64,000 nucleotides of DNA from a virus (IMGVR_UViG_3300020036_002415:6316-70315); one strand, 5' to 3'; shown: positions 22,701-63,883, counted from the first letter of the stretch. Numbers and translations: made by a program. The notes: generated from the sequence alone by a model not told the origin.

Positions 22701-25355
22701 TGTAATATCTTCTCCAGCCTCTTTTTTAGCTAATATTTCATCTTTTTCAGATATCTCTTTTTCTGTAGCTGGAACGGTAAAGTCATTCTCTTTCGCGTAC
22801 TTAACAATAGGGCTTTTTGAGTCAGAGTTTCTAATCTCTTCCATAGCCTTTGTGCAAAAAAGGAAAGATCCTTCGTCTCCATTCGTGCTAGAACCCATAG
22901 CAGCTCCGGGAACACCATAAAATCCAGCGACAAGTAATGTTATAACTAATTTCTCAACTCCTTCAGAAGCAGTTTTGCCAAAAGTAGCTTCACACGCCTT
23001 TTGAACATCACTACCCTCTTTAAACATCTCTTCTGTAAACTGACCGGTATATTCAGCTAGTGATTCAGTAATAGCACCTGCTCCAAGTCTAACAGCGAAA
23101 TTTGCAAATATATTAGTAACGCCTAATTTACCAAGCATCTTTGTTCCTATAGCTTGACCTACACCTTCACCAACACCAGCAAAGGCGCTTTCGCCAGATG
23201 CAGAAAATGCATAACCCTGACTAACCATATCCCATGCCACGTTAGCATAAAATTGCTTAGTTTTGTTAGCTCCAGCCCACAATTGAGCAAGCTTAGGCAC
23301 TTGTAATATTCCTGCCGCTTTATTAGCAACCCAAAGGTTTACTCCGATCTCAACCATCATTGGAAAAGATTCTCCTGCTGCGCGACCAGCTGATTCCCAA
23401 AAACCTGATCCTACTTTATCAACCTGATCGTCAGTTAATTCAAATCCTATATTTTGTATTCCTTCTATAGCGCGATCCTTAAGAGCTGACTTAGAGAAAG
23501 ATTCAAATCCTAATCCTGACTTAATTCCCTCGCTAAAACCGGTAGTGAAACCATCATCTTCTCCAGTTCCCGGATCTTCGTTTAGCACCAGAGCGCGATT
23601 AACTCCCATGAAATACGCAAGCCTATCATCCATGTATGATTGAGTCTTAGATATTTCATCTCTAGCTGCATTTACATGGACATCAGGAGATCCGTATTTA
23701 ATCATATCGTAATACTTAACTGCGCTATCATACGAGCGTTTAGCATTTACGTATTGAAAAAATGCATTATCTAATTCTTTAGTTAATGTTCCTTTGTCAG
23801 TATTCTCATAAATCTCAGCATACTTATTAACAGCGTTAACAAATTTGCCTTGATCTTGAACGGTTACAGCTTTATTAGAAATAAACTTTCCTTCTTTATC
23901 AAATAAATCTTCTCCGGTAATCTGAAGGTCTTTTAATACAGAAAGACCTTGTTTATATTTTTTTAATTCAACCTCTTGCTCAAGAGTTCTTTTCTCAAGC
24001 TTTTCCAAAGAAGTAATCTTTTGTTTAAGCGAAGCTATCTGTAGATCCTCTTGACTTAGGTAATCCATAGATATTTCGTTTCTTTTTTTAATCCAATACT
24101 CAGGAGCTTTATCACCAAGCTCTCTTTTCATATCAGTGAAATACTCAGATTTAGTATCATTAGCTTCCTTAACGGCATAGCTATTAGCATATTTATCTCT
24201 TATTTGTCTTTCCTCAAGACTAAGACCATCTTCACCATCAGGGAACTTAAGCTTATGGTCGTAAGCCCACTTCTCTTTATTTTCGTCTACTTTCTCTACA
24301 GTTATGTTGCTCTGTATTGCTATTTTTTTCTTAAAATTCTCTTCAGCGTTTGTATTTATTTGGGCATTAACAGCAGCAGCTGAATTAAAGAAATCAGTTG
24401 TTTTTTTCTCAATAGCTTCTGATAGACTAGGAGATCCAACCACTTCCGCTTTTTTACGCTGTATAGCAGTTAGTTCCTCTTGAGCGATAAGAGATCCAAA
24501 AGGTTTGCCTGTGTTTATATCTAGAACAAGGCTACGTTTATCTTCTGCATTTTCTTCACTTCCAATTCCACTAAGTATCTCATCTATTGATTTATAACCA
24601 ACTGGTTTTTTCTTAACAACGGGAGAAGATTCTTCTCTTGACACAGGAGACGTATCTCCAAGCCCAGCTTTATAAACACCTTTTGGAGCTTGATTCCAAT
24701 CTGAAGAATCAACTTGACCGGCTGCACCACCACCAAGATTAGAACCTGAAACAGAAATAGGCTCTGGTATAGGTAAACCATCGGCTTGAGCGCCAAGATC
24801 TGTCAAAGAACCTAATACAGATGGTTCTGATAATGCTGGATTTGGAACCAACATAGATTCATCAGCGCCAGCAACAGCTTTACCGATATTTGCAGCATCA
24901 GAAACAACGCCGGCGGTTGATTGAGGAATAATCTCCTCTTGTTGCGCTGGTTTCTCTGCAGCTACTTTATGACCAAAATAATTATTATATTCGTTAGCTT
25001 TAAAGTCATTCCAATTGCTTGACTGGAAAGGTGTTCCAGTAGTTGAGTTAATCGTTATAGTAGAAAACAATCTACGAAGGTTTCTTTCGTCATTCGCATA
25101 TTTATTTACAAACTGATCGTAAGAAAGATCAGTTCCAAACTCGTCGCTAGTTGAAATGAAGTTATACAATCCCTGCCAGCTAGAATCTTTTACATCAGGC
25201 TGTGCAGCAGCAGGTGTAGCCGCTTCAGCTTCAGCTTTCATCTTTTCGGCAGGCTTGCTTACCCCGGCTGATTTAATTGATCCAGCAGCCGGCTGGTTTA
25301 CAGATTTAACAATAGCGCCTGTTTGCGTGTTCGATACGTCTTGAGATAAACCCAT
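16701..25355 (-). CDS. Large polyvalent ejection (internal virion) protein with HExxH metallopeptidase-like and LPD38-like domains
   Basis: 2884 aa; LIHEVGHA plus EEGIAEFIRAY; FRVPKPFEYG near the C-terminus; long E/K/A/P-rich linker; follows two other ejection-type genes. Confidence 0.7.
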   Translation of the reverse strand: MGLSQDVSNTQTGAIVKSVNQPAAGSIKSAGVSKPAEKMKAEAEAATPAAAQPDVKDSSWQGLYNFISTSDEFGTDLSYDQFVNKYANDERNLRRLFSTITINSTTGTPFQSSNWNDFKANEYNNYFGHKVAAEKPAQQEEIIPQSTAGVVSDAANIGKAVAGADESMLVPNPALSEPSVLGSLTDLGAQADGLPIPEPISVSGSNLGGGAAGQVDSSDWNQAPKGVYKAGLGDTSPVSREESSPVVKKKPVGYKSIDEILSGIGSEENAEDKRSLVLDINTGKPFGSLIAQEELTAIQRKKAEVVGSPSLSEAIEKKTTDFFNSAAAVNAQINTNAEENFKKKIAIQSNITVEKVDENKEKWAYDHKLKFPDGEDGLSLEERQIRDKYANSYAVKEANDTKSEYFTDMKRELGDKAPEYWIKKRNEISMDYLSQEDLQIASLKQKITSLEKLEKRTLEQEVELKKYKQGLSVLKDLQITGEDLFDKEGKFISNKAVTVQDQGKFVNAVNKYAEIYENTDKGTLTKELDNAFFQYVNAKRSYDSAVKYYDMIKYGSPDVHVNAARDEISKTQSYMDDRLAYFMGVNRALVLNEDPGTGEDDGFTTGFSEGIKSGLGFESFSKSALKDRAIEGIQNIGFELTDDQVDKVGSGFWESAGRAAGESFPMMVEIGVNLWVANKAAGILQVPKLAQLWAGANKTKQFYANVAWDMVSQGYAFSASGESAFAGVGEGVGQAIGTKMLGKLGVTNIFANFAVRLGAGAITESLAEYTGQFTEEMFKEGSDVQKACEATFGKTASEGVEKLVITLLVAGFYGVPGAAMGSSTNGDEGSFLFCTKAMEEIRNSDSKSPIVKYAKENDFTVPATEKEISEKDEILAKKEAGEDITEEEIAKAELVEEKIIFQESKEGAKYDPVISTETASSFDFSDGITAEAKKEEAVAPAVEEKKQSKAEQKGTKVVGNAIVETPTTVVKATEKKAPSRKTATKTTVKSEKVEAKPAPVVEVKAPEMKVSKPEGFTTALKNLGYSDSDISSMTIEQQQDIAIKKTEKPIVENTTKVDSVKENIKQEKIAEAQKKIDEQIAEDAKVEVKEEPVKESRKIPNRKTTTRKTATKVDVVKEAPKVETKKEENVAKEKPVTKTPEPVVEPVVTEGTTRTEDTGRKEQPATEVESGKSGNKKVRPVIGERKLSTTVKKEPVVEKKQKQLTREQNQSVQSLNKEQVSKLREKLGTKTKTSDGKQVQKDFAASGGDVNDFIAAVEEIERESVQTYAQTRAEFDSVFNEAEKARKEGKSEKAVELYNKAKEIMPDQSERIDVAIDVAKSEVVDAKSIKLKEEVAAEEAAVAEEESVKSLDDVRSKLIDSEVTATASNKSGDKRSVSGKVLSVNRKSKSGGYEVLIDNGDGKSATKAKYNPDTKEFTIIPQEKGEEISNKSNFENSKERKEKSSPEKKKEKQQDVIDRLTAKLITDSDSAGSEIALDLDKDGEVKGIKRAFKSLLKKIAYGLSERVTPQYIADLKSELNGLIKDSESIQDIKIRSKLRNMIDSISEKDSETNINEEAEALAVAEKVEVVAPVKKEKSTEKKPAKKSKQTGKQEYDSVISSLDEVKSFTGKRVINFPKEMKPIYDSIKALHESGKITDQEYAALMDEYRTISLSATAGNNKIKAEDQKAVKAALNSNKPTSDDSMIDDNYQYAETHGQTQGQTRGRIAPAFVKIEDQRNFLKKAWDKFRGKMKNKTISDIKRDLIEKTRTIVFEQELKLTKKVDEKRVKVTPRWIGVFKKSANYIVLKGKNDLNTLIHEVGHAISYRFKLNDAISSGAYDTELAKLWDFGSRPPATKKVTVGGVVKSVKTNANDKLQYKREEGIAEFIRAYSVNPEIAKANFPALTALYESKVSADVKKAVAEFGFDFAVLDSLPQEELMELLYNNQAYVEQYLQRDKWHNRVITKTNGILNGIRDVLRGKGESRVNDNKGRISMGWWTYLHTSVAEKTGALGATVKFMKKRGVEFLAGNNPYTLIRNMSNFSQNRFKNLTSMGLVDKFGNRVITKSGNLMNFKWLFEEMGGGVSKISDYVSSYLIAKGVVYEIDSKGNIDIITNKLGGKFTDEVVRKQIEVIEDIKKSNPDLHKVIIESASRWQEMALQTVKYRYDKGLITEKRYKEISEGQDNYVALFRDLEERNTDVIRKKQSTQRKAQEVHKREGSEEKIENPYASLLELIMESYYEGDRNHAISSFVGGLKQLGDKTGGTEIFTEQHDGLKPISYFENGEFKTVFVSEDIAYVIDAMNSPSVTGNPVVDFIVELISTITNKLPKAFLTSTPGFLNRNIIRDTFTRPFVSRYKRDAADIKTALSETASLPKEFLQHVRTSIKISQLKTKQRSVGLTSDEKAKLFKLEKNVADSDASILELYGGTMSGWYHRSAKKYYAVLKELQDEFKHDGRSVLFKFGSKVTPGSIRRGWLGMLSSAENVNRIAEFKKVFAIEYKKNYEQFIKEGMNETDAKLHATHHARTAAAFEAKDLMDFTVAGSNMGVLNKLFMFNNPSIQGWNRSAKTFTGAEKGGKKAALSRILGRWVIWSAIATTAEAAWSAANDDDDELYNQPGYMKDTFWSFKIADNSWFRVPKPFEYGMLSSIMSRAYASANGNEYAWSGFGESLEGMLPPFFKPGMLLDNPIAQLYTGRDEFRGKDIIPSYEKNLDVNLRNTKYSSSFSKDFSEFIGVDPRYVDQFTSKAFSDWGNMFLNAYETINDEDGDYFEPLEVLKKKHTGLITESPTKNSATFQKLDQIMGEKGMKSNNKEFDELNNIYKHYKESDTDAQKDLYAEKYRIEANRLIDRFEAIIARDGNLNSIGGAATEEQKEQEKKAEASSSNSRGSNRGGGNRGGGDRSRSR

Positions 25356-27754: not shown

Positions 27755-28503
27755 TATACTTTTTCGTTTTTAGCAACTATAGTTTCGTCTTTGTAATTTC
27801 CTTGTCCATAAGGATTAAGCTCAGGTATGCCTAAACTTTTAGCTAAAACAACACCTCCTGTAGACTTACCTTCTTTAATCATTTGAGCGGCGCGCGCCTG
27901 CTGAGTATTATACTTAAGTAAACCTAACTCTAATCTTCTTTGTGAAATTCTAGTTTTAGTATCTCTTTCTGCTTGTCCGTATTGCAATTCTCCGGCTAAT
28001 TCTACATCTTTTAATCCAACTTGAGCTTGATTAAACATTTGAGTCATGGCATTCAAACCTTTAGCGCCTCCACCAACCTTAAATGAATTATTTATTCCTG
28101 TTCTCATTGCAGTGGCAAGTGCATTTCTTTGGGAAGATGTAGCTGTTCCGGTTTGAAAGGCACGTTTTCTTCTAGCAGCATAAGAAGCTAGTGATCTTTC
28201 TTCAGCAGATTCCATAGATGGAACCATAGCATCGGCTTTTTTCTCTTTAACTTTGCCAGTTATAAACTTTCCGACAGCTAAAGCAGCTGGAACTATAGCA
28301 GATAATCCACCAGTAGCTGCAAGAACAGCAGGATTTAAGCCGACTCCGGCAGCAACCTTCATTCCCGGCCCACTTACAGCATTTTTAAGAGTAGTGAATT
28401 TATTGCCTACATCAGTTCTTCGCTGATCCTTACTTCTTCCATTGGATTGTGCAGAGCTAGCAACTTGAGATATGCCTTTTATTAAAGCTGGATCAACGTA
28501 CAT
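27754..28503 (-). CDS. Putative ejection/DNA pilot protein
   Basis: A/G-rich helical N-terminus, Q/R/A-rich C-terminus. Confidence 0.6.
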   Translation of the reverse strand: MYVDPALIKGISQVASSAQSNGRSKDQRRTDVGNKFTTLKNAVSGPGMKVAAGVGLNPAVLAATGGLSAIVPAALAVGKFITGKVKEKKADAMVPSMESAEERSLASYAARRKRAFQTGTATSSQRNALATAMRTGINNSFKVGGGAKGLNAMTQMFNQAQVGLKDVELAGELQYGQAERDTKTRISQRRLELGLLKYNTQQARAAQMIKEGKSTGGVVLAKSLGIPELNPYGQGNYKDETIVAKNEKV

Positions 28504-31500
28504 TATTTAAGTTTTTTATATTGAATTTCAGTAGAAGAAATCTTAAACCCTTCGTCAAAGGTATTAATAATATTGTAAATAACCAAGCGTCCTTGCATTC
28601 TAAAATTAGGAATTATTAATTTTCTAGGTATATATCCCTCATAACCAAAGTAATCCTTCATTATGTTAGGGCTTAAAGAATTATCAATTTGAGCCTCTGG
28701 AGCAGTAGCTACAAGATATTGTTCAAAGTTATCGTAGAAATCCACGAAGTTTGGCTTGAAGTTACTGTTAACTCTAATCCTAAGAAATTCTTTATCCATG
28801 AATCTGTTATCAGAAGGAGCGCGATCTTCATACGCAACGTCTCCAGCACAAACACCAATCAGCTCACTTATTATAGGAACTCCATTAATCTCATTGCCTG
28901 AATTAAGGAGATATGTTCCGGCGTTCTTTATACCATAAGTTTCGTTATCTATTGTTACATATCTATCGAAGTTATAGTCAAAACCACCTTGCCACATCTC
29001 TTGCTGATCTCCCCAAACTAATGTAGGAGATGGTATCATGTTTCTATCTAAAACATGACCACCGAAGTTAACCCAGTATTCATTATGAAGCTCATCATAA
29101 ACTCCAGTCAAATGCTTGGTATAATCGCTTGACATATTAGATAAGAAGTATGGATATAGCTTTGAGTGATACCCGGCTCTACCAATATCGACTAATTCAT
29201 TATCAATGAACTTGTAAGCAGACTTATTGTTAACAAACCACATAATATTATTGAACTCAGCGCCAGATCTCCAAGATTCTCCATTTAAACCTATATCTCT
29301 AGAAATCCAAAGCTCATTAAGTATTCCTCCAATATCTGAACCAACAGTAGCTAATTCGCTCGCATTAATCTCATGGATAATTCTCTTATCAACAAGAAGA
29401 AGACAAACACCCTTCTCTGTGAATGCGTAAAGATTATTACCTTTAGCTGAAATAGAAGAGAATGCTTTCTTTATTTCTCCACTATCATCTGAAATATCAT
29501 ACGTGTTATTACTAGGGAAAGTCCTAACGGTTGGAGAATCTTGAATATTAACGGGTCTTTTAACGCTCCAGCAAACTCTTGTACAGTATTTATTCTGCTC
29601 TGTGAATCCAAGCTCAGGAGTAGATGAAATAGTTTTAGTATCATCTGTCTGACTGTAATCCAAATTAACCATTGGAGTAGCGGTAGCTAAGTTTATGAAT
29701 CTTAATCCACCATATTGCCACAATAGATATTCACTTCCGTAATCATTCTCATACTCGGCATAGATGTTATTGTCTTCATATACATCAGCAGCAACTTCAT
29801 TAGCAAATAAAGAATCATCCCATCTATTAGGGCGCATAACATAGTTCTTTAAAGGGAACCATTGATCGCTAGAATGTTTAGGATCTTCGTTATTGAAGGC
29901 ATAATTTAGATTAACTCTGGTCTCACATATAAAGTTAGATACGAGCTGTCTGATTTGAGCAGAAGCTACACCTAATTCTTGAAACCTGAATTTATCTTGC
30001 TGTTGAATACTACCAAGAAGAACGCCAGAATCTTTAGAGCGCTTAACTATGAACATTCTTGGATTAACATGGTATTTTCTATAAGGGAATGCCACGTTTA
30101 ATTTGAAGTTATCACCGGCTGTAACAGGATCACCTCCTTTATCATACTCATTATCTTGCCAAGCACAAACATTGTCTCCTATCCAAGTATCTCCACCAAA
30201 AACCCTAACCGGTATTCTGTTGTCATAAGATACTAATACTTTGCTACCCAAAGCCGGAACCTGAGTTCCTTTAGCAAACAAAACATTGAAGTAGTCGAAA
30301 TTTAAAGAAAACGTCTTAGCAACACCATCGTTTGATTCCGTACTTGTGTACACTCCATAAACGTTATAAGATCCAGAAGCGTCAGTTGCAACATAAAACC
30401 CATCATCTGTTATATCAGTTAATATAGTAGTTATCTGAGGGTTGGAGAATTCGTTTACATTTAACCATCTCAATTTACCACCATTAGTATCCTCAATAAA
30501 GCAAAATCTATTCAAACCAGAGTAGTAACCACCATTGTCTCCAACAGTAACTGGAATGCAATCCTCCCATCTCTCATCAACAAGAGAGTAAGAATTAGTA
30601 TCATCATAGCTAGAAACTCCAATAAGAGAATCCAACTTCACATAGTTCCCACAGTATTTAAACTGAGTAGTGTTATTGTTTGGAACAACAGCATTTCTTT
30701 TAACTATGTTAACCATATATATAGGTTCATGCCAATTTTGAACATCTGGCTCGTCACCCTGATATTCTCCATTAGAATATTCTTGAGTATATATTGGCTG
30801 AGTGGTTCTTATTCTTAAATATTTTGATCTACCTTTTGTTATCTCTTCTACATCATCAATATCGTACAAGAAGTTTCCGTTATCCCCGGAAGTATGTTGT
30901 GGAGAAAACTGAGAAGTAGCTCTCCATTTGCCATAAGCAACAAATCTATCAAGAGTGGTCGCATCCAAAATACCCATATCCGGGTTTTCATCAGGATTGA
31001 TTCTAGCATTAGACCCCTCACCATCATTCAATAAACGACACCAAGTAACAACATCAGCCATTATGTCGCCGGTAACTGCATCATCAAAAGAGTAAACCTC
31101 TGTAAAGAATCCTAAAGGAGAAGCAAGCTCTAATCCATACGGTTCAAAATCAGATAATAATGAATCTACAAGTGAGTTATTTATGCCGTAATTATCATCA
31201 GCATCTGGAAGATACAACCAGAATTCATAAGGATCTTTAGATGTATTCGCGCCAAATTCTCCATCAGCTGATCTCAATTTGTAAAACCCAATTCCTTGAG
31301 CAGATATCTTTTCAGCAGGGGCGGTTCTAACAACAGAGAACGCTTTAGCCCAACTAGGAAATCCAGAAACGCCATTCAAAGCCATGCCCATAGAGAAGTA
31401 CCTTGGGCTGAATCCAGCAGGGTTATAATCAGAAGCAGCTCCTGAGTTCTCAACTTTATAGTTTACCTTATAGTCAAGAGAGTCAATATTTGTGTCGTCT

Positions 31501-33158
31501 TGATTAGTTGGGTAAAATGGTCTATATCCTAATTCGCTACCAGTAACAGTAACACCAAATCCATCATCAGCAGCAGTTGGACAAGATACGTCGTAATTTA
31601 CCTCTCCATCAGACTTATGAGCCGTTCCGGTTATATTGCCAAATATTGATTCGCTGAATATGTTTTTGTAATCACAACCATCTTCTTTAGCTGTGGCATC
31701 AATTAAATCAAACACTTCGTGCGTTTGAGAAACGTTTCCATCAGTATCAGCAGCCCTAACGGTTCCGTAATAAGATATATCTTCAGTTAATGTACTAATT
31801 GTATCTCTACGGCTAGGTAATTCATAGCTTTCAAATCCGGGAATCTCATCAGCATAAGACCAGTTTCCTTGAGAATCCCAGAGTATTGTAGCCCACCCGT
31901 AAGTTTCATGCCTCATTAAAGACTTGAAAGAGGCTCCATTATAAGGTTCTCCATGACCACGAACACCCATGTTGTGTATAACCGGGAACATTGCGTTGGA
32001 TCCTCCGTTATAAACTAAGTCTCCAGAAATATCCATTGACTCGTACTCAACATTCATTAAGTACAAGGTGTTGTTAAAATATCTTACTGTTTTAGCCTTT
32101 TTAATAGAAGCTAATACCTCTATAGCTTCATCTCCGCTTACAACTTCTTCAGCAGCCTTTCCTTGATCTAGAATGTCTCTAACAGATAATTCTCCGCTAT
32201 TTACATCTATTCTGGCTATAATCTCCATAACAGGAGGGCTACCTAAAGCATCTTCTGCATACCAAGAATCACGACGAAGCTCTATAAAGTCATAGTCGTT
32301 TGAATTATCTATACGCAACTTTATATGCGCCCCATATATACTTGGAGATGATATATCAGCAGGTTTAGATATAGTTTGAAGGTGCGGGAAATGTGGTTCG
32401 TTTCCGCTAGTTAAACGCTTTACAACTGGTATCATATCAGTTGGAGGAGACCATTGTGTTCTATCTCCAGCCGCAGTAGCGAATCTGTAAGAGTATGTGT
32501 AGTAACCAACAGGCAATCCTAAACCGTAAAGTACATTTGTGTATCCACCGGTACTTGCATCTAATTTTATAAACACCGGGTGATTAACAGCGCGACTTAA
32601 AGAAAGTCTATATAAGTCTATATTGAAGTCAGCGAAGTACTTTTCAGAGCAAACGCCATCATCAGTCATTCCACTATTATTCATTAAATCCAATGCATTG
32701 AATATCATTGGCTCAACGTTAAAGTCGGTGACATATATTTCTCCACCAATACAAGATTCATTTACATCAATCTGTAAAGGAAATGGATATGTTATCGGAA
32801 AGTCTGCAGAAAGAAGTACAATTTGACCATTAATTCTAACGTAAGACGGAAGCACTCCTTCTTCGTCAGCCCAAAACTCAACTATATTTCCATTTACTAC
32901 GCACGTTCCAATATTTGAATAAGTGGCAGCCATAGGAGAATCATCTCCATCAATACAATTGTTATTTATGTTTGGGTATATTAGCTCTTCTCCACCAATC
33001 TTTTTTATTGCCCCATTAGTTGAGTCCATAGACATATTACGCATATTTCTTGCGTCTATGTATTGACCCTGACCTATTGTTGTAAATTCCTTATCAGTAT
33101 CAAAATTAGCACCCTTATCGTAAGTCCTTCTGTCTTTTGGATGGTGATATTGCTTCAT
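28503..33158 (-). CDS. Tail muzzle/stabilisation protein (crAss-like, tubular protein B position)
   Basis: 1551 aa; Y.DARNMR N-terminus; KSLMRHETYGWATILWD; VRVFGGDTWI; follows three ring proteins. Confidence 0.7.
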   Translation of the reverse strand: MKQYHHPKDRRTYDKGANFDTDKEFTTIGQGQYIDARNMRNMSMDSTNGAIKKIGGEELIYPNINNNCIDGDDSPMAATYSNIGTCVVNGNIVEFWADEEGVLPSYVRINGQIVLLSADFPITYPFPLQIDVNESCIGGEIYVTDFNVEPMIFNALDLMNNSGMTDDGVCSEKYFADFNIDLYRLSLSRAVNHPVFIKLDASTGGYTNVLYGLGLPVGYYTYSYRFATAAGDRTQWSPPTDMIPVVKRLTSGNEPHFPHLQTISKPADISSPSIYGAHIKLRIDNSNDYDFIELRRDSWYAEDALGSPPVMEIIARIDVNSGELSVRDILDQGKAAEEVVSGDEAIEVLASIKKAKTVRYFNNTLYLMNVEYESMDISGDLVYNGGSNAMFPVIHNMGVRGHGEPYNGASFKSLMRHETYGWATILWDSQGNWSYADEIPGFESYELPSRRDTISTLTEDISYYGTVRAADTDGNVSQTHEVFDLIDATAKEDGCDYKNIFSESIFGNITGTAHKSDGEVNYDVSCPTAADDGFGVTVTGSELGYRPFYPTNQDDTNIDSLDYKVNYKVENSGAASDYNPAGFSPRYFSMGMALNGVSGFPSWAKAFSVVRTAPAEKISAQGIGFYKLRSADGEFGANTSKDPYEFWLYLPDADDNYGINNSLVDSLLSDFEPYGLELASPLGFFTEVYSFDDAVTGDIMADVVTWCRLLNDGEGSNARINPDENPDMGILDATTLDRFVAYGKWRATSQFSPQHTSGDNGNFLYDIDDVEEITKGRSKYLRIRTTQPIYTQEYSNGEYQGDEPDVQNWHEPIYMVNIVKRNAVVPNNNTTQFKYCGNYVKLDSLIGVSSYDDTNSYSLVDERWEDCIPVTVGDNGGYYSGLNRFCFIEDTNGGKLRWLNVNEFSNPQITTILTDITDDGFYVATDASGSYNVYGVYTSTESNDGVAKTFSLNFDYFNVLFAKGTQVPALGSKVLVSYDNRIPVRVFGGDTWIGDNVCAWQDNEYDKGGDPVTAGDNFKLNVAFPYRKYHVNPRMFIVKRSKDSGVLLGSIQQQDKFRFQELGVASAQIRQLVSNFICETRVNLNYAFNNEDPKHSSDQWFPLKNYVMRPNRWDDSLFANEVAADVYEDNNIYAEYENDYGSEYLLWQYGGLRFINLATATPMVNLDYSQTDDTKTISSTPELGFTEQNKYCTRVCWSVKRPVNIQDSPTVRTFPSNNTYDISDDSGEIKKAFSSISAKGNNLYAFTEKGVCLLLVDKRIIHEINASELATVGSDIGGILNELWISRDIGLNGESWRSGAEFNNIMWFVNNKSAYKFIDNELVDIGRAGYHSKLYPYFLSNMSSDYTKHLTGVYDELHNEYWVNFGGHVLDRNMIPSPTLVWGDQQEMWQGGFDYNFDRYVTIDNETYGIKNAGTYLLNSGNEINGVPIISELIGVCAGDVAYEDRAPSDNRFMDKEFLRIRVNSNFKPNFVDFYDNFEQYLVATAPEAQIDNSLSPNIMKDYFGYEGYIPRKLIIPNFRMQGRLVIYNIINTFDEGFKISSTEIQYKKLK

Positions 33159-55498: not shown

Positions 55499-56806
55499 AT
55501 GAAAAAGGCAAATTTAGAAGACATTCAGCAATATCTTGTTGATTGCAAAGGGTGTGGTAAAAAGCACTTACCGATTGGAGTACTGTTTAGGGGAGGAAGC
55601 TATTGCGCTAGTTGTAAAAAAGAAATGGAAACTTGTGCAATTAGCGGTGAGAATTATATGAAGAAGGAAATGAAGCACTTCAAGCTTCAAGACATCTACA
55701 TTAAATCACCAAACATTGACCTTATTGTTAAGTCATCTATATCTAAAAAGGAGATATATATTGGCACTGTAATTAAATCTAAGTTAACGCCAGATTTATT
55801 TGCTGGTAAACTAGCTAACGGTAAATATGCCTTAGTTGGTGAGTTGGTTGGCATTGGGTATATCTTAACATCTGCTAATGTTTGGGCTGACGGATCTACT
55901 TTATTTAGATACGGAACAGAGACTGTACCGAGAGAGAATACCTCAGATCATTTAGAAAGCGCCGGTAAATTAGTACTTGGTTATTCAACTAAGCCTGAGC
56001 CAATCTTTAGAAAGATGTATGAGAATGAACACATGGGAATAGGTGTTCCTTACTTAGGGTTAGAGCTTGAGGTTAATACGATGTCTAGAGATTCAGCTGA
56101 AAAGGTTTTGTCTAAAAAAGTCATCGACTTAATGGTAAAGACTGACCTTATAGAGAATTTCTATATGAAGCACGACGGATCTATTGGTAATGGAGTTGAG
56201 ATTGTATCTCATCCTACAACATTATCTTACTTTAAGAAATCAAAACTTAAAGAAATGATTGAAGGTATAAAAGAGATTGGTTTTCAAGATGATGATACGT
56301 GTGGATTACATATCCATGTAAGCAGAGATTCACTATCAAAAAAAGGCTGGTGGACACTAATGAGCTTCATTAGCAAAGTAAACAATAAGTTCGTTAAGCT
56401 GTCAAGAAGACAAAAAGATAAAATGAGCTACTGTAGCTTCGACGGACTTAGAGGTGGTGTAATGGATGCTTTATTAAGTGGTAAAGAAATATTTACACAT
56501 GACATCACTAAAAACGGAGAAAGAAGACTTGCTGTAAACTTCAACAACAAAAACACAGTAGAGTTCAGATTATTTAGATCTACGGTTGACCATGACACAC
56601 TAATAGCAACTATGGAGCTAGTAGAGGCTCTTGTGTTGTTTTGTAGAGAATATAGTTTCATGTATGTTCAAGATGAGCGATCATCTGAACTATGGAACGA
56701 GTTCACTAAATTCGCATCAAACAAAGGTTACAAGAAACTCATTAACTTAATGAAATCAATGGGTCTTGTTTATATTAACGAAAAAACCAAAAAAGTATGT
56801 GCATAA
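55499..56806 (+). CDS. Putative amidoligase (COOH-NH2 ligase fold) with N-terminal Cys motifs
   Basis: LGLELEV, KHDGSI, GVEIVSHP, TCGLHIHVS, NF...TVEFRLF. Confidence 0.85.
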   Translation: MKKANLEDIQQYLVDCKGCGKKHLPIGVLFRGGSYCASCKKEMETCAISGENYMKKEMKHFKLQDIYIKSPNIDLIVKSSISKKEIYIGTVIKSKLTPDLFAGKLANGKYALVGELVGIGYILTSANVWADGSTLFRYGTETVPRENTSDHLESAGKLVLGYSTKPEPIFRKMYENEHMGIGVPYLGLELEVNTMSRDSAEKVLSKKVIDLMVKTDLIENFYMKHDGSIGNGVEIVSHPTTLSYFKKSKLKEMIEGIKEIGFQDDDTCGLHIHVSRDSLSKKGWWTLMSFISKVNNKFVKLSRRQKDKMSYCSFDGLRGGVMDALLSGKEIFTHDITKNGERRLAVNFNNKNTVEFRLFRSTVDHDTLIATMELVEALVLFCREYSFMYVQDERSSELWNEFTKFASNKGYKKLINLMKSMGLVYINEKTKKVCA

Positions 56807-58071
56807 TAGCAGTAAAAAAAGAAGGCGTTAAAATGCCTAAAGAGAAGATCATCAGAAAGATGTTCAGCTCAAACTCAGATGGCGCTGGTCTTATGATTAA
56901 GAAAAAGCATGACACAAAAATTCGACTCGTGAAAGGGTTAATGACAATAGATGGATTTCTTAAAGCTATAGCCTCATTAGAAATAGAAGACGATGATATA
57001 GTTGTCATGCACTTCAGGATTGCAACTATAGGCGGAAAGCTTGATCGGTTAACGCATCCTTTTGTTGGTAATGCTGACAAAGATCTTTGTGAGTCAACTA
57101 ATTACTATGGAGATGAGTTGTGCTTCGCTCATAACGGAACACTATCATCATATTCACACGCTGCGAAAACAGTAGAAAGAAGCGATACTTCATTATTTGC
57201 CTCTATGATAATGTCAAGCCCGGCTATCAAAAATAATCTTAACGATAGAGTTATTAAAAGACTCTTGGAAGATTACATAGGGTCAGGTAATAAGCTAGCA
57301 GTAATTAATCCAAATGAACATAACGTTCATCTTTTCGGTAGTTGGAGCTCTGAAGGCAAAAAAGAATACCTGTGGAATAAAGCAGAAGACGGAATGATTT
57401 ACTCAAATTTTTCTTGGGAGGTGGATCATACACCCTTCTACTGGGGGTACTCAGATATGTACTCCCGAAATATTTCAGAGGTGGAAGAGGTGGTTCCCAA
57501 AGATGTCAGACGACGAAATAATAAGAGCAATAGCAAGGTTGGGAAGGTAGTCGATATAAATAACTTTGGAAGAACAAATGAGGAGTTATTCTCAGATGAT
57601 GATTCACTAAACGGAATAAACACAACCACTGTAATGCACATCATGGATGACATTAGAGCATTAAGCGAAGAAGAATATGAATCTTGGCTTGATTACATAG
57701 GAATGAGAAAACACGAATTCGAGAAAGAAGTTAGAGAAGGAGTGATTGGACTTACTTGGTATATAAAAATGCAAGAGGAGTGGATGGATGAGTTGTTTGA
57801 AGAAGAAAGACTTAATGAGGCTGATGAAAACGGAGATGTTGTTTACCGATCAGGAGTAATTGTAACAGACAAAGGCAGAGAACCTTTAAAGAACTCAAAA
57901 AAAAAAGTAAAAACTGAACCAGAAATGTGTGATTGGTGCTTAATCTCAGCAAGTGATGCGAAAGATATAGGTATAAAAATAAACGAACTAAGCGAGGCTT
58001 TATTTGCTGGTAGATGTTTATGCGATCATTGCGTTAAAGATCTAAAGTTTAGACAAGGTGCAGGTTATTAA
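56797..58071 (+). CDS. Class II (Ntn) glutamine amidotransferase with acidic and Zn-finger C-terminal extension
   Basis: N-terminal MC nucleophile; NSDGAG, HFRIAT.G, HPF, AHNG, SDT; terminal CDWC/CDHC. Confidence 0.88.
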   Translation: MCIIAVKKEGVKMPKEKIIRKMFSSNSDGAGLMIKKKHDTKIRLVKGLMTIDGFLKAIASLEIEDDDIVVMHFRIATIGGKLDRLTHPFVGNADKDLCESTNYYGDELCFAHNGTLSSYSHAAKTVERSDTSLFASMIMSSPAIKNNLNDRVIKRLLEDYIGSGNKLAVINPNEHNVHLFGSWSSEGKKEYLWNKAEDGMIYSNFSWEVDHTPFYWGYSDMYSRNISEVEEVVPKDVRRRNNKSNSKVGKVVDINNFGRTNEELFSDDDSLNGINTTTVMHIMDDIRALSEEEYESWLDYIGMRKHEFEKEVREGVIGLTWYIKMQEEWMDELFEEERLNEADENGDVVYRSGVIVTDKGREPLKNSKKKVKTEPEMCDWCLISASDAKDIGIKINELSEALFAGRCLCDHCVKDLKFRQGAGY

Positions 58072-58151
58072 TGCATAAGCTATGCCTACGTATTGCTTAG
58101 GTAATGCGTAGGCTATGCAAAGAAAATAAAAGAAAATAAAAGAAAATATAT
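58071..58151. repeat. Second iteron-like palindrome plus AAGAAAATAA tandem repeats
   Basis: GCCTACGTATTGC-TTA-GGTAATGCGTAGGC hairpin; inverted homology to 48176..48276. Confidence 0.65.
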
Positions 58152-58793
58152 ATGAACTACATACCATTAAGCGATGATTATAAATCGTCAGCGATATACC
58201 ACATGAGGCATGGTCGTAATAATATTCTATTTGTATGCTCGAATATAATTAACTCACTAACGTCTAAAGAGGATAACGATCTTAAGAAGTGGGCTACATC
58301 AAGCAGATATAATATTCAACACCTAATAAGATTCTTAAGATATACTGATAAATATCAAATCTATTTAATACCTAACGGGGTTGAATGTAAATTTGGTGTT
58401 GGATGCGACGAAATAGATACATCTATTAGCACCGACATGAGAAGAGACGTTAACGGAGCTGGGTACTTACTTATAAATAGAAAGCGCGTCACTATCAACG
58501 ACAGCGAATCTAAGGACAGAGATCCATTCATAAATCAACTGCCTTTAAAGTTTGAGTCGCATGACTTTACTGGAAAAGAGATATGGGCTAATAGATTATT
58601 CATGGCTATCACTAATGAAAAAAGTGGTAGATGGTTCCTTGATAATTATGACACATACAACACATACTGCGCTCTCTTCCCAGATGAACAAAGAGGATAC
58701 AGTGAAGGAAGTGTTGATTTATTTAGTGATTTATACTTTAGAATAGGAGATGAAATTAAAGAATTTAAAACATTAAACAAGCAATATTTATGA
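58152..58793 (+). CDS. Hypothetical protein in the amidoligase operon
   Basis: 213 aa; ATGA overlap with the ATP-grasp gene. Confidence 0.65.
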   Translation: MNYIPLSDDYKSSAIYHMRHGRNNILFVCSNIINSLTSKEDNDLKKWATSSRYNIQHLIRFLRYTDKYQIYLIPNGVECKFGVGCDEIDTSISTDMRRDVNGAGYLLINRKRVTINDSESKDRDPFINQLPLKFESHDFTGKEIWANRLFMAITNEKSGRWFLDNYDTYNTYCALFPDEQRGYSEGSVDLFSDLYFRIGDEIKEFKTLNKQYL

Positions 58794-59584
58794 AAAAGGT
58801 ATCAGTAATATCAAGGCATCCAAGTCACAAGAATTTTGAGTTGCCTCTATTTGATAAATCTGTTAGAATCAGATTCGGATCTACAACCACATTCACAAAA
58901 AGAAAGCAGATTGAGTTCCCGTCTATTGACAAGATAAAGCTAACATCAAACAAGCTTGAGATGAAAAGAATATTTCAAGAGTCTGGAGTAGCTAGTCCTG
59001 TGTGGGGATTTGTTAGTTATCGACAATTGAGATCGCTATCAACAGACAAGGTTATTCCAGATGAGTTGAGTCATTTGTTTGTAATAGCCGAAGGTAAGCC
59101 TGAGCCGGTATTTGAACTCATCTTCAAAGAAAAGAATCACTCAAGAGGAGAAGGTATAATGTTTATTAGTAATTTCGACGACATAGTTTCTGTATTCAAT
59201 AATGGAAAAGATGGATACGTTGAGCAAGTTGTTGGAAATCACAGAGAATTTAGAGTTCATGTTTGCGATGGCGATGCCTTCTATATTGATGAGAAACGAC
59301 CAAGAGAGCGCGGACATGTAGCTAGAATTAAAAACCTAGCCAACGGATATAAGTATCGCGAACCTAGAAAAGAATATCCAGCCACTATCAAAACTGAGGC
59401 AATTAAAGCTGTTGAGGCTATAGGTATTGACTTCGGTGCGGTAGATGTATCAATCTCTGAAGACGGAGTAGTAAATGTGTTTGAGGTTAACTCAGCTCCG
59501 GGCTTAAGGTCAAGAACTAGAAAGCTTTACAACAAAAAGTTAGTAGAATTGATTATCAAAAAAGGTGCAGAAATTGTTGAATAA
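58790..59584 (+). CDS. ATP-grasp ligase (RimK-like)
   Basis: NKLEM, YVEQ, EFRVHV, DFGAVD, EVNSAPG. Confidence 0.88.
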   Translation: MKKVSVISRHPSHKNFELPLFDKSVRIRFGSTTTFTKRKQIEFPSIDKIKLTSNKLEMKRIFQESGVASPVWGFVSYRQLRSLSTDKVIPDELSHLFVIAEGKPEPVFELIFKEKNHSRGEGIMFISNFDDIVSVFNNGKDGYVEQVVGNHREFRVHVCDGDAFYIDEKRPRERGHVARIKNLANGYKYREPRKEYPATIKTEAIKAVEAIGIDFGAVDVSISEDGVVNVFEVNSAPGLRSRTRKLYNKKLVELIIKKGAEIVE

Positions 59585-59596
59585 AAAAACATAGTT

Positions 59597-60031
59597 ATGA
59601 GCAAGACAATAGTAAAAAAAGTTATCGTTTTACCGGAAGAGGTTAAAAAGAAAATAGAAGGAGTTAAATTCGGGTGGGTAGCTCAAGAGCAATTAGAGCA
59701 GCTAGTGAAAGAATCTACTGACATGGAGGATATTACATGCCAACGAATTGATTACTACCTGAAAAAAACTACACATCAGTCGTTCTTAGTTGATGAACAC
59801 TACAGAATGATTGAAGTTAATTATCCGAAAAAAGGATTCCCTGTATTGGTCTTCAAGAAAAATGAAAGCGGAGAAGAAGTGTTACATGGGTTTGTGTTCA
59901 TTCCAAAAGACAAGATAGAAGAGATTGCCTATTTTAATGATGGCGGCTGCTCTATTGAGGACATGTATGAGTCTACTGTAGATGGTCAACAAGATCAAGT
60001 TTTATTTAATCTAATGGTTCAAACGCTTTAA
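59597..60031 (+). CDS. Hypothetical protein
   Basis: 144-aa ORF. Confidence 0.65.
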   Translation: MSKTIVKKVIVLPEEVKKKIEGVKFGWVAQEQLEQLVKESTDMEDITCQRIDYYLKKTTHQSFLVDEHYRMIEVNYPKKGFPVLVFKKNESGEEVLHGFVFIPKDKIEEIAYFNDGGCSIEDMYESTVDGQQDQVLFNLMVQTL

Positions 60032-60284
60032 ATTAAGATATGTCAACACAAGTGATTCCATCAGCAAAAGAATTTATTAAAAAAGAAGAATAAACATCGG
60101 GAGGGAGTGCTGAAAAAGCAGAGTCAGTGGGGTAATTCCTAACGGTAAAAAGTGATACTTCTCTCTCTCGGTGTTTATAATTTGGTCATGTTGGTGAAAT
60201 AGTAAGTCACTGTATGGTTCCGTAGCCGGTATAACAAATCTTACCTTACAAACAGAAATTCACCGCATGACCATTTTTTAGATT

Positions 60285-60343
60285 GCGCATAACGTGATGC
60301 AGCTATGCGCTCGTTTTAATGGCGCATAGGTGCTGTTATACGC
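60285..60343 (+). repeat. attC-like site 1
   Basis: GCGCATAAC...CTATGCGC-loop-GCGCATAG...GTTATACGC. Confidence 0.8.
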
Positions 60344-60402
60344 TGGCACGGTTTATTAAACGAAAAACTTAAATTGAAACACAAAACAAAATTTTTATTA
60401 AA

Positions 60403-61389
60403 ATGAGCGAAGGCAAAAAAGAAATATTATTAGGAGATTGTTTGGAACTTATGAAGGATATACCAAACGGAAGCATTGATATGATACTTTGTGATTTACC
60501 TTACGGAACAACTGCTTGTGTTTGGGACACAATTATACCTTTTGACAAACTTTGGGAACAATACAAGCGAATTATTAAAGATAAAGGTGTAATTGTTTTA
60601 TTTGGTTCAGAACCATTCTCATCTTTATTGCGGACATCTAATTTAGATTGGTATAAATATGATTGGATTTGGGAAAAAAATAATGCAGGAAATTTTCAAT
60701 TAGTAAATTACCAACCATTAAAAATACACGAAACAATATCAGTATTTTACAACGAAACACCTAATATGGAATTTGCTAATATTATGGTTGAAAATATGAA
60801 ACGACTTAACTTGAAACAGATTGATATTTCTAAATTAGAATTGTCAAGAACAGGTGGAATGACTGGTTGGGTTACTAATAAAATGAATGGTTCACAATTA
60901 CCAACAGAACAGCAATGGGGTAAGATTTGTAATTTATTTGGAATTGAAAATAAGTATGATGAAATACTTTCAACAGTTAAAAAGATTACATATAACCTTG
61001 AGCTTGATGAAACTGAATTGATATTGTCAAATAAAGGTAAATCAGGAACACTTGGTCATTTATCAAGTGAGAGTAAAAGAGAAACGTACATACAAGACAA
61101 AACAGGCTATCCCAAAAGTATATTGAGATATAATAGAGAAAATGGACTACACCCAACGCAAAAACCTATACCATTAATGGAATTTTTAATAAAGACATAC
61201 TCAAATGAGAATGAGATAGTATTAGATAACACAGCAGGAAGCGGAACAACCGCAATAGCTTGTTTGAATACGAAACGCCAATTTATAGTAATGGAAAAAG
61301 AACAAAAGTATTACGATATTATTTTAAAGAGGGTGGCAGATTTTAATAAAAATTTTGAAACGCAAACTCTCTTTGGAAATGAAATGTAG
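60403..61389 (+). CDS. Orphan beta-class DNA methyltransferase with internal XRE-HTH insertion (cassette)
   Basis: DMILCDLPYG catalytic motif before the VLDNTAGSGTT SAM motif; HPTQKP. Confidence 0.9.
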   Translation: MSEGKKEILLGDCLELMKDIPNGSIDMILCDLPYGTTACVWDTIIPFDKLWEQYKRIIKDKGVIVLFGSEPFSSLLRTSNLDWYKYDWIWEKNNAGNFQLVNYQPLKIHETISVFYNETPNMEFANIMVENMKRLNLKQIDISKLELSRTGGMTGWVTNKMNGSQLPTEQQWGKICNLFGIENKYDEILSTVKKITYNLELDETELILSNKGKSGTLGHLSSESKRETYIQDKTGYPKSILRYNRENGLHPTQKPIPLMEFLIKTYSNENEIVLDNTAGSGTTAIACLNTKRQFIVMEKEQKYYDIILKRVADFNKNFETQTLFGNEM

Positions 61390-61394
61390 TGCTT

Positions 61395-61495
61395 GCGTAT
61401 AACGGTTTGTGTATGGTTTGAAAGCCAACACACGACATTTGATTAAATGTACGAACATTAATTTGGCTTTTTAACTATACACTTTGTTATAAGCC
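61395..61495 (+). repeat. attC-like site 2
   Basis: GCGTATAAC, 20-bp imperfect inner stem, GTTATAAGCC. Confidence 0.8.
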
Positions 61496-61522
61496 GTTTT
61501 TACTAACTTAAATAAAAGAACA

Positions 61523-61822
61523 ATGGACACAGGAATAAGAGACTTTTGCGTTAAATACAACGAGAAGCTGAAAAATGATAAAGACATTAAAGAGAACCAA
61601 TTAGATTTTTTTAGAGATTTTAGAGACAGAATTAACTTTAATCTAAATATGTATGTTAGTTGCCCTAATACAATGTGGATGGGACAATACAACGGACAAA
61701 ACTTATTTAGATTGGATGAGGAAGATTTGGAATACTTATACAAGAAGTACTCTAAAAAAATTGAGGCTGAAATGGAGCAGAATATAGCAAAAATTAAAGA
61801 TAGCTACAAGGATGCTCTTTAA
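61523..61822 (+). CDS. Hypothetical cassette protein
   Basis: Single ORF between sites 2 and 3. Confidence 0.7.
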   Translation: MDTGIRDFCVKYNEKLKNDKDIKENQLDFFRDFRDRINFNLNMYVSCPNTMWMGQYNGQNLFRLDEEDLEYLYKKYSKKIEAEMEQNIAKIKDSYKDAL

Positions 61823-61824
61823 AT

Positions 61825-61884
61825 GGCTTATAACGGACGAGTATTTGCGCTCGTTTTAATGGCGCAAATACTGTGTTATAGCCA
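61825..61884 (+). repeat. attC-like site 3
   Basis: GGCTTATAAC, 11-bp stem AGTATTTGCGC/GCGCAAATACT, GTTATAGCCA. Confidence 0.85.
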
Positions 61885-61925
61885 GTAGTGGATTCAATCA
61901 CTATCAACTTAAATAAAAAACGAAA

Positions 61926-62264
61926 ATGAAAAAAACGAAAATTGTATGCTTTTGTGGTTCAACAAGATTTGCCCAATACTTTATGATTGAGCGATGGAAA
62001 TTAGAAAAGCAGGGAATAATTACTTTAGGAATAAATATATTGCCCGATGGATATTTTGCAGGTGAAAATCATCACGGAGCAGAGCAAGAAGGTGTCAAAG
62101 ACATTTTAGATGAACTGCATAAACGTAAAATTGATATTTCTGATGAAGTAGTGATTTTGAATGTTGGTGGATATATTGGGCAATCCACAAAAGCGGAATT
62201 GGAGTACGCTCTTGAAATTGGTAAACCAGTAAGTTATTTAGAACCGCTAACGATTGGCAGCTAA
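61926..62264 (+). CDS. Nucleoside 2-deoxyribosyltransferase-like/DUF4406-like protein (cassette)
   Basis: VCFCGSTRF...HKRKIDISD...GGYIGQST..ELEYA. Confidence 0.7.
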   Translation: MKKTKIVCFCGSTRFAQYFMIERWKLEKQGIITLGINILPDGYFAGENHHGAEQEGVKDILDELHKRKIDISDEVVILNVGGYIGQSTKAELEYALEIGKPVSYLEPLTIGS

Positions 62265-62313
62265 AATTAAGCGTAGCGACCTGAAAGGTTAATTTTTAGG
62301 TGATGTTAGCCAC
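62243..62313 (+). repeat. attC-like site 4
   Basis: ACCGCTAAC, CAGCTAAAATTAA/TTAATTTTTAGGTG, GTTAGCCAC. Confidence 0.75.
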
Positions 62314-62352
62314 AGTTTATTATTTGATTATTAACAACTTAATTTTATAAAA

Positions 62353-62715
62353 ATGAAAAATTTAAAAGTAGTATCAATTGATTCGGATTCGCTGGAATTT
62401 AACAACGGAGTGAAATTGTATTCAAACCACAAACAAGATTGTTGTGAAAGCCATTATTTGAGTTTATTAGATTTAACCTTGGAAGATTTTGAAGGTTTAG
62501 AATTTGACTTAACAAACGATGACTTCTTTGAAAGAATTGAAGATTATGGAATTGCATTAAAACCTTTAAATGGTTATCCTGTTAGAATACCTGGTTATGG
62601 TTCAAATAACGGTTACTATTCATCAAATTTAGATTTGATTATTACCGATATAGATGGAAGAACAACTTTAAAAGAGTACGATATTTCCGAATGCCAAGAT
62701 TGGGATGGTTATTAA
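62353..62715 (+). CDS. Conserved phage hypothetical protein (QDCCE/SNNGYYS family; cassette)
   Basis: HKQDCCES and GSNNGYYS motifs. Confidence 0.7.
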   Translation: MKNLKVVSIDSDSLEFNNGVKLYSNHKQDCCESHYLSLLDLTLEDFEGLEFDLTNDDFFERIEDYGIALKPLNGYPVRIPGYGSNNGYYSSNLDLIITDIDGRTTLKEYDISECQDWDGY

Positions 62716-62734
62716 AAACCGTAAACGGAACATT

Positions 62735-62869
62735 ACTTATAACGTTTGACGGTATGAGATGTGCCGTATTAGAAGCATAAACTATCAATTATAAATAAAC
62801 TTAATTATGAAACTGAAACTTGAATTTACCGAAAAAGAAAGGCATATCTTATACCGTGTGTTAGCGGTA
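62735..62869 (+). repeat. attC-like site 5 (long loop containing a start codon)
   Basis: ACTTATAAC, 16-bp CGGTATGAGATGTGCC/GGCATATCTTATACCG, GTTAGCGGTA. Confidence 0.8.
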
Positions 62870-63028
62870 GTGCTATCTATTACATTTATGGCAACTGGAG
62901 TGTATGCCATAAGTTATTTTGAAAAACTTGGCTTAATAACAGGGCAATGGCAAATAGTACCAGCACTAGGATTGCATATACTTCAATGGTGGTTAGTTAT
63001 GCGAGTGGTATTCAAGCATTACCGCTAA
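62807..63028 (+). CDS. Small membrane protein (cassette); stop codon lies in the R'' box of site 6
   Basis: Two hydrophobic segments; ATG inside the loop of site 5. Confidence 0.6.
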   Translation: MKLKLEFTEKERHILYRVLAVVLSITFMATGVYAISYFEKLGLITGQWQIVPALGLHILQWWLVMRVVFKHYR

Positions 63029-63146
63029 CGTATGGTGCTATACTTAGTGCCGATTTATGAAAACGAATGTTAATTATTAAAAACAAAAAGATGTTAAAAA
63101 ACGAAATAACCGAGAATGAGGCATTGAGTATAGCACGTGTTAGTGG
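63020..63146 (+). repeat. attC-like site 6 (long loop containing a start codon)
   Basis: TACCGCTAAC, 16-bp TGCTATACTTAGTGCC/GGCATTGAGTATAGCA, GTTAGTGG. Confidence 0.82.
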
Positions 63147-63882
63147 TAGTACTTTTGTGAACGCAGATTGCTTCGATGTTTTTCCTTTTATTAAGGATAA
63201 ATCAATTGATGCTATTATTTGTGATTTACCTTACGGAACTACACAAAACAAACAGGATATAATAATCCCATTTGATAAACTTTGGGAGCAATACGAAAGG
63301 GTAATAAAAGATAATGGTGCAATAGTACTATTTGGACAAGGATTATTTTTTGTAGATTTAATAAACTCAAATAGAAAGTTATTTAGATACGATTTAGTTT
63401 GGGATAAGCAATTAATTAGTGGCTTTCTAAATGCTAATCGTATGCCTTTGAGAGTTCACGAAAATATAGCAATATTCTATAAAAAACTTCCAATATATAA
63501 CCCACAGTACACTGAAGGTAAACCACTTCATTCAAAAGGTAAAACGTATATGAATAAGGAGCATAAAAACGAAAACTATGGTAAGTTTGAAATGACAGAC
63601 GACAGTAGGGCAGGGAGCACTCAAAAGCACCCTAAAAGTATTATATCTTTTCCAAAACCACATCCAAGTATAGCACAACATAGAACTGAAAAATCTATTG
63701 AAATGCTTGAATGGTTAGTAAAAACATACACAAACGAAGGCGATATGGTTTTAGATAATACAATGGGTTCAGGAACTACAAACTTGGCTTGTATCAAATT
63801 AAATCGTAAATCAATTGGAATAGAAAAGGAAAAACAATATTATGATGTCGCTGTTCGTAGGGCTTCGGAGTATTGCCACTAA
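63067..63882 (+). CDS. Orphan beta-class DNA methyltransferase (cassette); likely start 63091
   Basis: DAIICDLPYG, HRTEKS, VLDNTMGSGTT; stop TAA within CCACTAAC. Confidence 0.9.
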   Translation: MLIIKNKKMLKNEITENEALSIARVSGSTFVNADCFDVFPFIKDKSIDAIICDLPYGTTQNKQDIIIPFDKLWEQYERVIKDNGAIVLFGQGLFFVDLINSNRKLFRYDLVWDKQLISGFLNANRMPLRVHENIAIFYKKLPIYNPQYTEGKPLHSKGKTYMNKEHKNENYGKFEMTDDSRAGSTQKHPKSIISFPKPHPSIAQHRTEKSIEMLEWLVKTYTNEGDMVLDNTMGSGTTNLACIKLNRKSIGIEKEKQYYDVAVRRASEYCH

Positions 63883-63883
63883 C
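63876..63883 (+). repeat. attC-like site 7, left (R'') half only
   Basis: CCACTAAC complements the R' of site 6; no convincing right arm follows. Confidence 0.5.

Follow-up and report, generated by a model that had tools for sequence, protein, structure and literature searches.

A phage-borne array of folded-site gene units, probably a recombinase-less part of an integron-like shuffling system of Bacteroidota and their phages

Positions 60290–63883 (+ strand) of a virus sequence from IMG/VR (IMGVR_UViG_3300020036_002415) hold six gene units separated by palindromic sites that are closed by TAAC and GTTA. The window analyzed here is a stretch of 64,000 nucleotides (nt), bases 6316–70315 of the 70,315-nt record, which has linear ends and a CheckV completeness of 100%. 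We conclude that this array is probably a recombinase-less, six-unit representative of an integron-like gene-shuffling system of Bacteroidota and their phages. The array is real, and the system it represents is integron-like but not a classical integron, and barely described. The breakpoints, the pairing of unit ends and the linkage of related arrays to a recombinase strongly imply that units recombine at the TAAC/GTTA core. A phage-borne array of single, same-strand gene cassettes had been proposed in a first-pass annotation made from the sequence alone; this central claim is supported, and the type of recombination that it assumed is not.

The + strand of the window carries five strong palindromes, a sixth that has decayed and, at the end, a half site, with six + strand open reading frames (ORFs) between them (Table 1). 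The layout TAAC-N8-10-TAT...ATA-N6-GTTA described in the first-pass annotation holds, including TTT/AAA at site 3 and TAA/TTA at site 4, and all of the boxes and coordinates that it quoted are present in the sequence. Folding predicts each site as a hairpin closed by TAAC/GTTA, with a bulge of ~5 nt after TAAC and of 1–3 nt before GTTA. Sites with at least 12 stem pairs number five (12–19 pairs), all on the + strand within 2.9 kb; the other 67 kb contain none, and 100 Markov-1 simulated genomes gave a mean of 0.45 such sites and a maximum of three. The box that opens a unit (R') matches the box that closes the same unit at the following site (R'') over 9, 10, 10 and 8 nt for cassettes 1, 2, 5 and 6, respectively, and perfect runs within a site measure 4–6 nt. 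The cassette rule proposed earlier, by which boxes pair across sites, therefore applies to four of the six window cassettes. Stop codons had also been placed inside TAAC: its TAA does terminate two of the six cassette genes (ORFs ending at 63028 and 63882) and not the rest.

The same organization was recovered in a survey of 315 unique sites from ~250 other viral contigs. At these viral loci the 3 nt that follow GTTA (the barcode) are complementary to the barcode ahead of the next TAAC in 143/180 neighboring pairs, compared with 16/313 for the two barcodes of a single site; random pairing gives 5.3%. Complementary body ends reach 12–16 nt, in the form GTTA-nnn-GCAGT.. / ..ATTGC-nnn-TAAC, and the sequence turns variable exactly outside TAAC and GTTA. 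The sites fall into size classes of ~48, 88 and 125 nt, are grouped as same-strand arrays, and share the strand of the gene in 104 cases, with one on the opposite strand. In an alignment of 42 short sites, covariation extends to all 12 stem pairs, with 119 double changes (equaled in 0/500 shuffles), and TAAC, GTTA and the 11-nt loop TCGTTTTAATG are unchanged in 42/42. The 21-nt core common to sites 1 and 3 occurs exactly in 64 other viral contigs, and seven true sites were found on contigs of metagenome-assembled genomes (MAGs); among bacterial genomes, 5 of the 12 matches to a 19-mer of the core are chance occurrences inside genes. A site model (R1) trained on short sites only misses site 2 of the window and barely detects sites 5 and 6.

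Six full palindromes and a half site had originally been counted. Five of the palindromes stand as strong sites; the sixth, site 4, is decayed, scoring only 24 bits with model R1 and folding no better than shuffled sequence. Its history is visible in a cassette of another locus (L031), which is 93% identical to body 3, the identity beginning exactly at GTTA. The L031 copy ends with the expected box, ATTGGCTA-TAAC; in the window, both the true R''-TAAC and the site 4 bulge have been lost through a deletion of 13 nt, and the TAAC at 62248 arose by a C-to-A change within ORF 3. Cassette 3 breaks the end-pairing rule because the true left box of site 4 was removed by this deletion. Homologues of body 3 are in some cases cassettes and in others ordinary phage genes. 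The half site is present as described, but it marks the genuine right boundary of the array: a bare TAAC lacking a hairpin also terminates many related arrays. Separately, the false R'' box at the end of ORF 3 (GAACCGCTAAC, 62241–62251) complements the R' box of site 5 (62860–62870) over 9 nt. Since GTTAGCGGTTCG is a common R' box elsewhere, this match may date from an earlier end of a cassette.

The positions at which related sequences part company are illustrated by a widespread body encoding a DNA methyltransferase (methyltransferase-2). Its ends, GTTA-GTG...CAC-TAAC, are kept in >35 loci at only 55–85% protein identity, with divergence directly after TAAC. The same body carries at least six head types (a head being the folded site ahead of a body), with the break at GTTA; six of these are all in frame with it, the distance from ATG to GTTA being 42–72 nt in multiples of three. 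Within this family the upstream hairpins are the most similar (identity 0.93), compared with 0.76 for bodies and 0.51 for downstream hairpins. A wider count gave four cases in which the upstream hairpin was the same and the downstream one different, and none of the reverse. Genes are co-inherited with the hairpin upstream of them, and both TAAC and GTTA are points where homology ends. The earlier interpretation, in which an IntI-type enzyme had cut at G|TT of R', is not supported by this pattern.

Movement of whole units was seen in public metagenomes. Unit 62740–63029 occurs with 0–1 differences between unlike flanks in contigs of three studies, and metagenome contigs lose their match to the window at 61399 (run X1) and 62744, adjoining the TAAC of sites 2 and 5. 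Several of these joints have short sides and may derive from other organisms; parts without cover were not counted. The wastewater samples with this phage comprise runs X1, X2, X3 and X12; in RNA runs, only small parts of the stretch were represented. A histogram of the endpoints of high-scoring segment pairs was tried as a further breakpoint measure and rejected, being too sparse and confounded by conserved hairpins.

Arrays of relatives are linked to a tyrosine recombinase of ~277 amino acids (aa; for example L083:1195-2028). Of the 38 viral homologues for which 1 kb or more of 5' sequence is available, 32 are preceded by same-strand sites; 87 sites lie on the strand of the recombinase and two on the other, and no same-strand site lies downstream. 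The last TAAC is followed by a TAYTATATGTAAA-like motif and, ~60–70 nt later, by the start codon of the recombinase. Linkage of the sites to a tyrosine recombinase in relatives, one of the checks suggested at the outset, was thus found. The enzyme is Xer-like, with best matches to NF040815 (192 bits) and to archaeal XerA (PDB 4a8e and 5hxy). It scores below all curated cut-offs, including that for integron integrases (TIGR02249, 159.6 versus 265 bits). Its alignment to IntI4 (2a3v) is split into two stretches, of which the first stops at residue 179 (IntI4 residue 181). These features do not fit the IntI-type recombinase originally invoked. A tyrosine recombinase of 270–287 aa is present in 6/50 site-bearing viral records.

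The proposal of a Bacteroidota-specific system is upheld as far as the link to Bacteroidota goes. Homologues of the recombinase (36–46% identity) were detected in 130/401 sampled Bacteroidota genomes. Model R1 matched 15/151 Bacteroidota genomes, a lower bound because the model was built from short sites only. Sites lie a few kb from a recombinase homologue at loci in three MAGs (G052, G132 and G162), and 6/30 recombinase loci of Bacteroidota genomes have a site just downstream on the opposite strand. In two MAG arrays, L241 (G132:C56:38000-49000) and L242 (G162:C1:333000-343000), the ORFs and the recombinase are on the strand opposite to the sites, and one matching-ended cassette there has three ORFs.

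Each unit comprises a folded head, the imperfect palindrome closed by TAAC/GTTA, and a gene body with its own inverted repeat, GTTA-barcode...barcode'-TAAC. We propose that a tyrosine recombinase would act on the folded site, with strand exchange within the invariant TAAC/GTTA core; the unit would consequently exit as a circle with its two private boxes paired, and could re-enter at another TAAC. The likely enzyme is the ~277-aa Xer-like recombinase found after the terminal TAAC in related phage arrays, and the window phage would obtain it in trans, from a co-infecting phage or the host. Heads very likely also act in expression. The sites, the end-pairing rule, the breakpoints, the mobility of units and the recombinase linkage are observed; the chemistry, the strand used and the supply in trans are the parts that we infer. 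More tentatively, and with rather less confidence than doubt, the family may be a second, unrecognized kind of integron in Bacteroidota and their lytic phages, with a small Xer-like recombinase, a sense-strand hairpin, and heads and bodies that are separately exchangeable, by which anti-defense gene sets would be rebuilt combinatorially at co-infection through an enzyme acting in trans. The two DNA methyltransferases in the window cargo are probably anti-restriction genes.

Several observations weigh against a recombining cassette system. The record contains no tyrosine recombinase (no PF00589 match), serine recombinase or Y1 enzyme, the three classes searched, which counts given its completeness; the first-pass annotation had already noted that no integrase was in the window, and this holds for the record as a whole. 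No tyrosine recombinase occurs in the 13 site-bearing viral records with a completeness of 90% or more; most arrays are therefore orphans, possibly fossil ones. The end-pairing rule is violated by cassettes 3 and 4 of the window, only the first of which is accounted for by the deletion. Excised circles, which had been suggested as a check, and unit-sized deletions on one phage backbone were not found in metagenome contigs, where rare forms are invisible. Breaks fall at both TAAC and GTTA, unlike the prediction for a single integron-type crossover. Lastly, the sense strand folds better and heads contain start codons, and the hairpins may therefore serve mainly RNA-level roles.

This last point belongs to an alternative that we consider unlikely: the palindromes would act purely at the RNA level or in regulation, as ribosome-loading heads, processing sites or stabilizers, and genes would be shuffled by ordinary homologous recombination at conserved motifs. 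An ATG whose ORF reads through GTTA is present in 35/64 long heads, compared with 5/76 short or middle heads, and long heads provide the start codon and the first 14–24 codons in frame. The six head types in frame with the methyltransferase body also suit such modules, as do an AACTTAA-like motif 5' of the start codons of ORFs 1–5 and the lack of a recombinase in most complete array-bearing phages. The top strand gives the better fold at 6/6 window sites, and transition mismatches in stems, which were found by Watson–Crick pairs only, appear on the sense strand as G.T in 358 cases and as A.C in 120, a wobble preference of ~3:1. Homologous recombination nevertheless accounts neither for the fixed place of one recombinase clade beside the arrays, nor for homology ending at a 4-bp core, nor for the complementarity of the two ends of one gene when the boxes of one site lack it. 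The ORFs of the two mapped MAG arrays are antisense to the sites, and the wobble bias follows the site, 15 versus 5, in a small sample of 10 sites from Bacteroidota genomes. The hairpins have no T-tail, and no Rfam family is matched, whether at the gathering threshold or with E values of up to 1. A scan for terminators and promoters revealed no T-tailed hairpin and no excess of sigma-70-like sequences, Bacteroidota promoters being outside its coverage. A leader-ORF arrangement, in which a short ORF ending in TGA overlaps a GTG start, was ruled out, as translation places six head types in frame.

A precedent for gene shuffling through homologous recombination is reportedly provided by the PeSL promoter/stem-loop cassettes of T4-type phages, for which work by Arbiol in 2010 and Comeau in 2014 is said to have proposed this route. 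In PeSL elements a conserved early promoter is coupled to a terminator-like stem-loop. They resemble the present sites in that a conserved stem-loop with signals for expression borders accessory genes where the genomes of lytic phages are plastic, and marks gene-swap breakpoints. Unlike this family, they are not known to have inverted ends that differ from gene to gene, a 4-bp core at the breakpoints or a recombinase linked to them.

It is very unlikely that the array is a classical cluster of attC sites lacking integron-integrases (CALIN, for which IntegronFinder requires at least two attC hits with no intI close by), in which a phage would have acquired genuine integron attC sites and a host IntI would recombine them at G|TT of R'. 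The R''/R' boxes do resemble RYYYAAC/GTTRRRY, with extra bases on the R'' arm, and a site of the same class has been called an attC before. The first-pass annotation knew of no characterized phage example; one exists among the CALINs reported in virulent phages, where P12002L_attC1 of Polaribacter phage P12002L was predicted by HattCI (Qi et al. 2023, PMC9892861). P12002L_attC1 shares with the present family TAACG, the covarying stem, the loop TCGTTTTAATG and GTTA, and lies between two methyltransferase genes (L078:7011-7059); a window methyltransferase matches phage P12002L over a 108-nt stretch at 90% identity. It was described as a single integron attC, and the family, its recombinase and its polarity went unrecognized. 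Of the six sites tested in that study, P12002L_attC1 was the only one without IntI1 x attI1 recombinants (PMC9892861). A captured integron array is further contradicted by the inheritance of the hairpin with the downstream and not the upstream gene, by the associated enzyme, with its two-stretch IntI4 alignment and a score below the integron-integrase cut-off, and by IntegronFinder 2.0, which reports almost no integrons for Bacteroidetes. Our literature search found no paper on this site family, its recombinase or its polarity.

That each gene is a small transposable or invertible element with terminal inverted repeats GTTA...TAAC, moved by a transposase or invertase, is highly improbable: each body does have inverted repeats of 8–16 nt, but these are gene-specific outside the core, boundary cores are common to neighboring units, there are no target duplications, inverted genes almost never occur (104 versus 1), and no transposase, serine recombinase or Y1 enzyme was found in the record.

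The integron-like system that we favor shares with integrons its mostly single-gene, co-oriented cassettes, its folded imperfect palindromes with an AAC/GTT core, the complementarity between the box that starts a cassette and the box that ends it and, in relatives, a tyrosine recombinase and an attI-like motif at one array end. It differs in its Xer-like ~277-aa enzyme, which is located after the array on the same strand and whose IntI4 alignment is broken after residue 181; in a hairpin that belongs to the downstream gene, with breakpoints on both of its sides, an integron attC being located 3' of its ORF and moving together with that ORF through one crossover at G|TT of R'; and in site geometry, with a 5-nt bulge beside TAAC, short sites with an invariant loop and long sites that encode a protein start. 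A further integron hallmark is absent from the window, where neither attI nor an integrase gene stands at the array head. The array-linked recombinase is closest in sequence to archaeal XerA and bacterial XerC/XerD, at scores below every curated cut-off; unlike them, it adjoins cassette arrays and not a dif-type site.

The integron is held to be a bacterial device whose defining element is IntI; the system described here would be a parallel one, with its own site geometry and an Xer-like enzyme. It is common in uncultured phages of wastewater, freshwater and marine samples, and DNA methyltransferases are among its cargo. If active, it would provide a specific route by which the accessory regions of lytic phages become mosaic and genes pass between phages and the chromosomes of Bacteroidota, and would mean that recombination at hairpin sites is possible without the IntI-specific domain. 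Polaribacter phage P12002L and its host constitute a cultured system bearing such a site.

Table 1. Sites, bodies and ORFs of the array, with positions counted from the first base of the window
Feature	Position	Strand	Details
Site 1, short head, left end of array	TAAC 60290–60293, GTTA 60335–60338; feature 60283–60338	+	R''-like box ATTGCGCA, 12-bp stem, invariant loop TCGTTTTAATG; model R1 84.5 bits
Body 1	60339–61399	+	Private ends GTTA-TACGC...GCGTA-TAAC, 9/9
ORF 1, N6/N4 DNA methyltransferase, 328 aa	60403–61389	+	Pfam PF01555 3.5e-27; phrog_67
Site 2, 90-nt head	61400–61489	+	19 stem pairs (folding)
Body 2	61490–61830	+	Ends GTTA-TAAGCC...GGCTTA-TAAC, 10/10; ORF 61523–61822, 99 aa, no family found
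Site 3, short head	61831–61878	+	21-nt core identical to site 1; model R1 75.6 bits
Body 3	61879–62264	+	ORF 61926–62264, 112 aa, no family found; own R'' box lost
Site 4, decayed head	62248–62308	+	Stem and GTTA 62305–62308 remain; R''-TAAC and bulge deleted
Body 4	62309–62739	+	ORF 62353–62715, DUF7448, 120 aa, Pfam PF24240 3e-8; ends unmatched, GTTAGCC... vs ...CTTATAAC
Site 5, long head, 124 nt	62740–62863	+	Loop carries ATG 62807, start of ORF 5
ORF 5, 73 aa, no family found	62807–63028	+	Stop is TAA of next TAAC; unit ends match 10/10
Site 6, long head, 117 nt	63026–63142	+	Loop has in-frame ATGs at 63067 and 63091
ORF 6, N6/N4 DNA methyltransferase, 271 aa	63067–63882	+	Pfam PF01555 2.8e-29 from residue 47
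Terminal half site, right end of array	63872–63883 (TAAC 63880–63883)	+	ATTGCCAC-TAAC; unrelated sequence beyond

Individual units show further features. The DUF7448 gene of cassette 4 has a homologue in another locus (L036) that is a cassette with matching ends. The first ~24 residues of ORF 6 derive from the site 6 head, and its body starts GTT-AGT-GGT-AGT (VSGS); this is the body that relatives join in frame to six head types and whose end recurs in >35 loci. An AACTTAA(A/T)T-like motif lies ~0–30 nt 5' of the starts of ORFs 1–5, at 60365–60375, 61505–61515, 61906–61916, 62335–62345 and 62796–62805, the last within the loop of site 5; the motif may serve as a promoter of the phage or in translation. 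The R' box of site 1 is enclosed by a small alternative hairpin, GTGC...GCAC (60330–60349), and many sites precede similar GC(A/T)G..GCGG motifs. At five loci of the family (L004, L005, L012, L062 and L071), some short sites end in GTTG, not GTTA, and are followed by shared sequence; the recombinase gene of L071 starts ~170 nt further on.

The array sits at the right end of the record. Elsewhere the window encodes a portal protein, a weak large-terminase match and two tRNA-Met genes, at a G+C content of 36%. Megablast and blastn searches of the region against isolate phages returned only the 108-nt methyltransferase match and one weak hit. Relatives of 58790–59584 and 59597–60031, which were sought among viral contigs for a comparison of arrays at the same locus, were not found. 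The structural region contains two very long ORFs on the - strand, of 2884 aa (16701–25355) and 1551 aa (28503–33158). Genes with weak matches to glutamine amidotransferase and ATP-grasp proteins lie just 5' of the array (56797–59584), with no relatives found in viral contigs. A 370-nt gap before the array (60032–60289) includes a hairpin with 18-bp arms (60090–60107 / 60161–60178), and contigs from three runs carry 21 other letters in place of 60200–60261.

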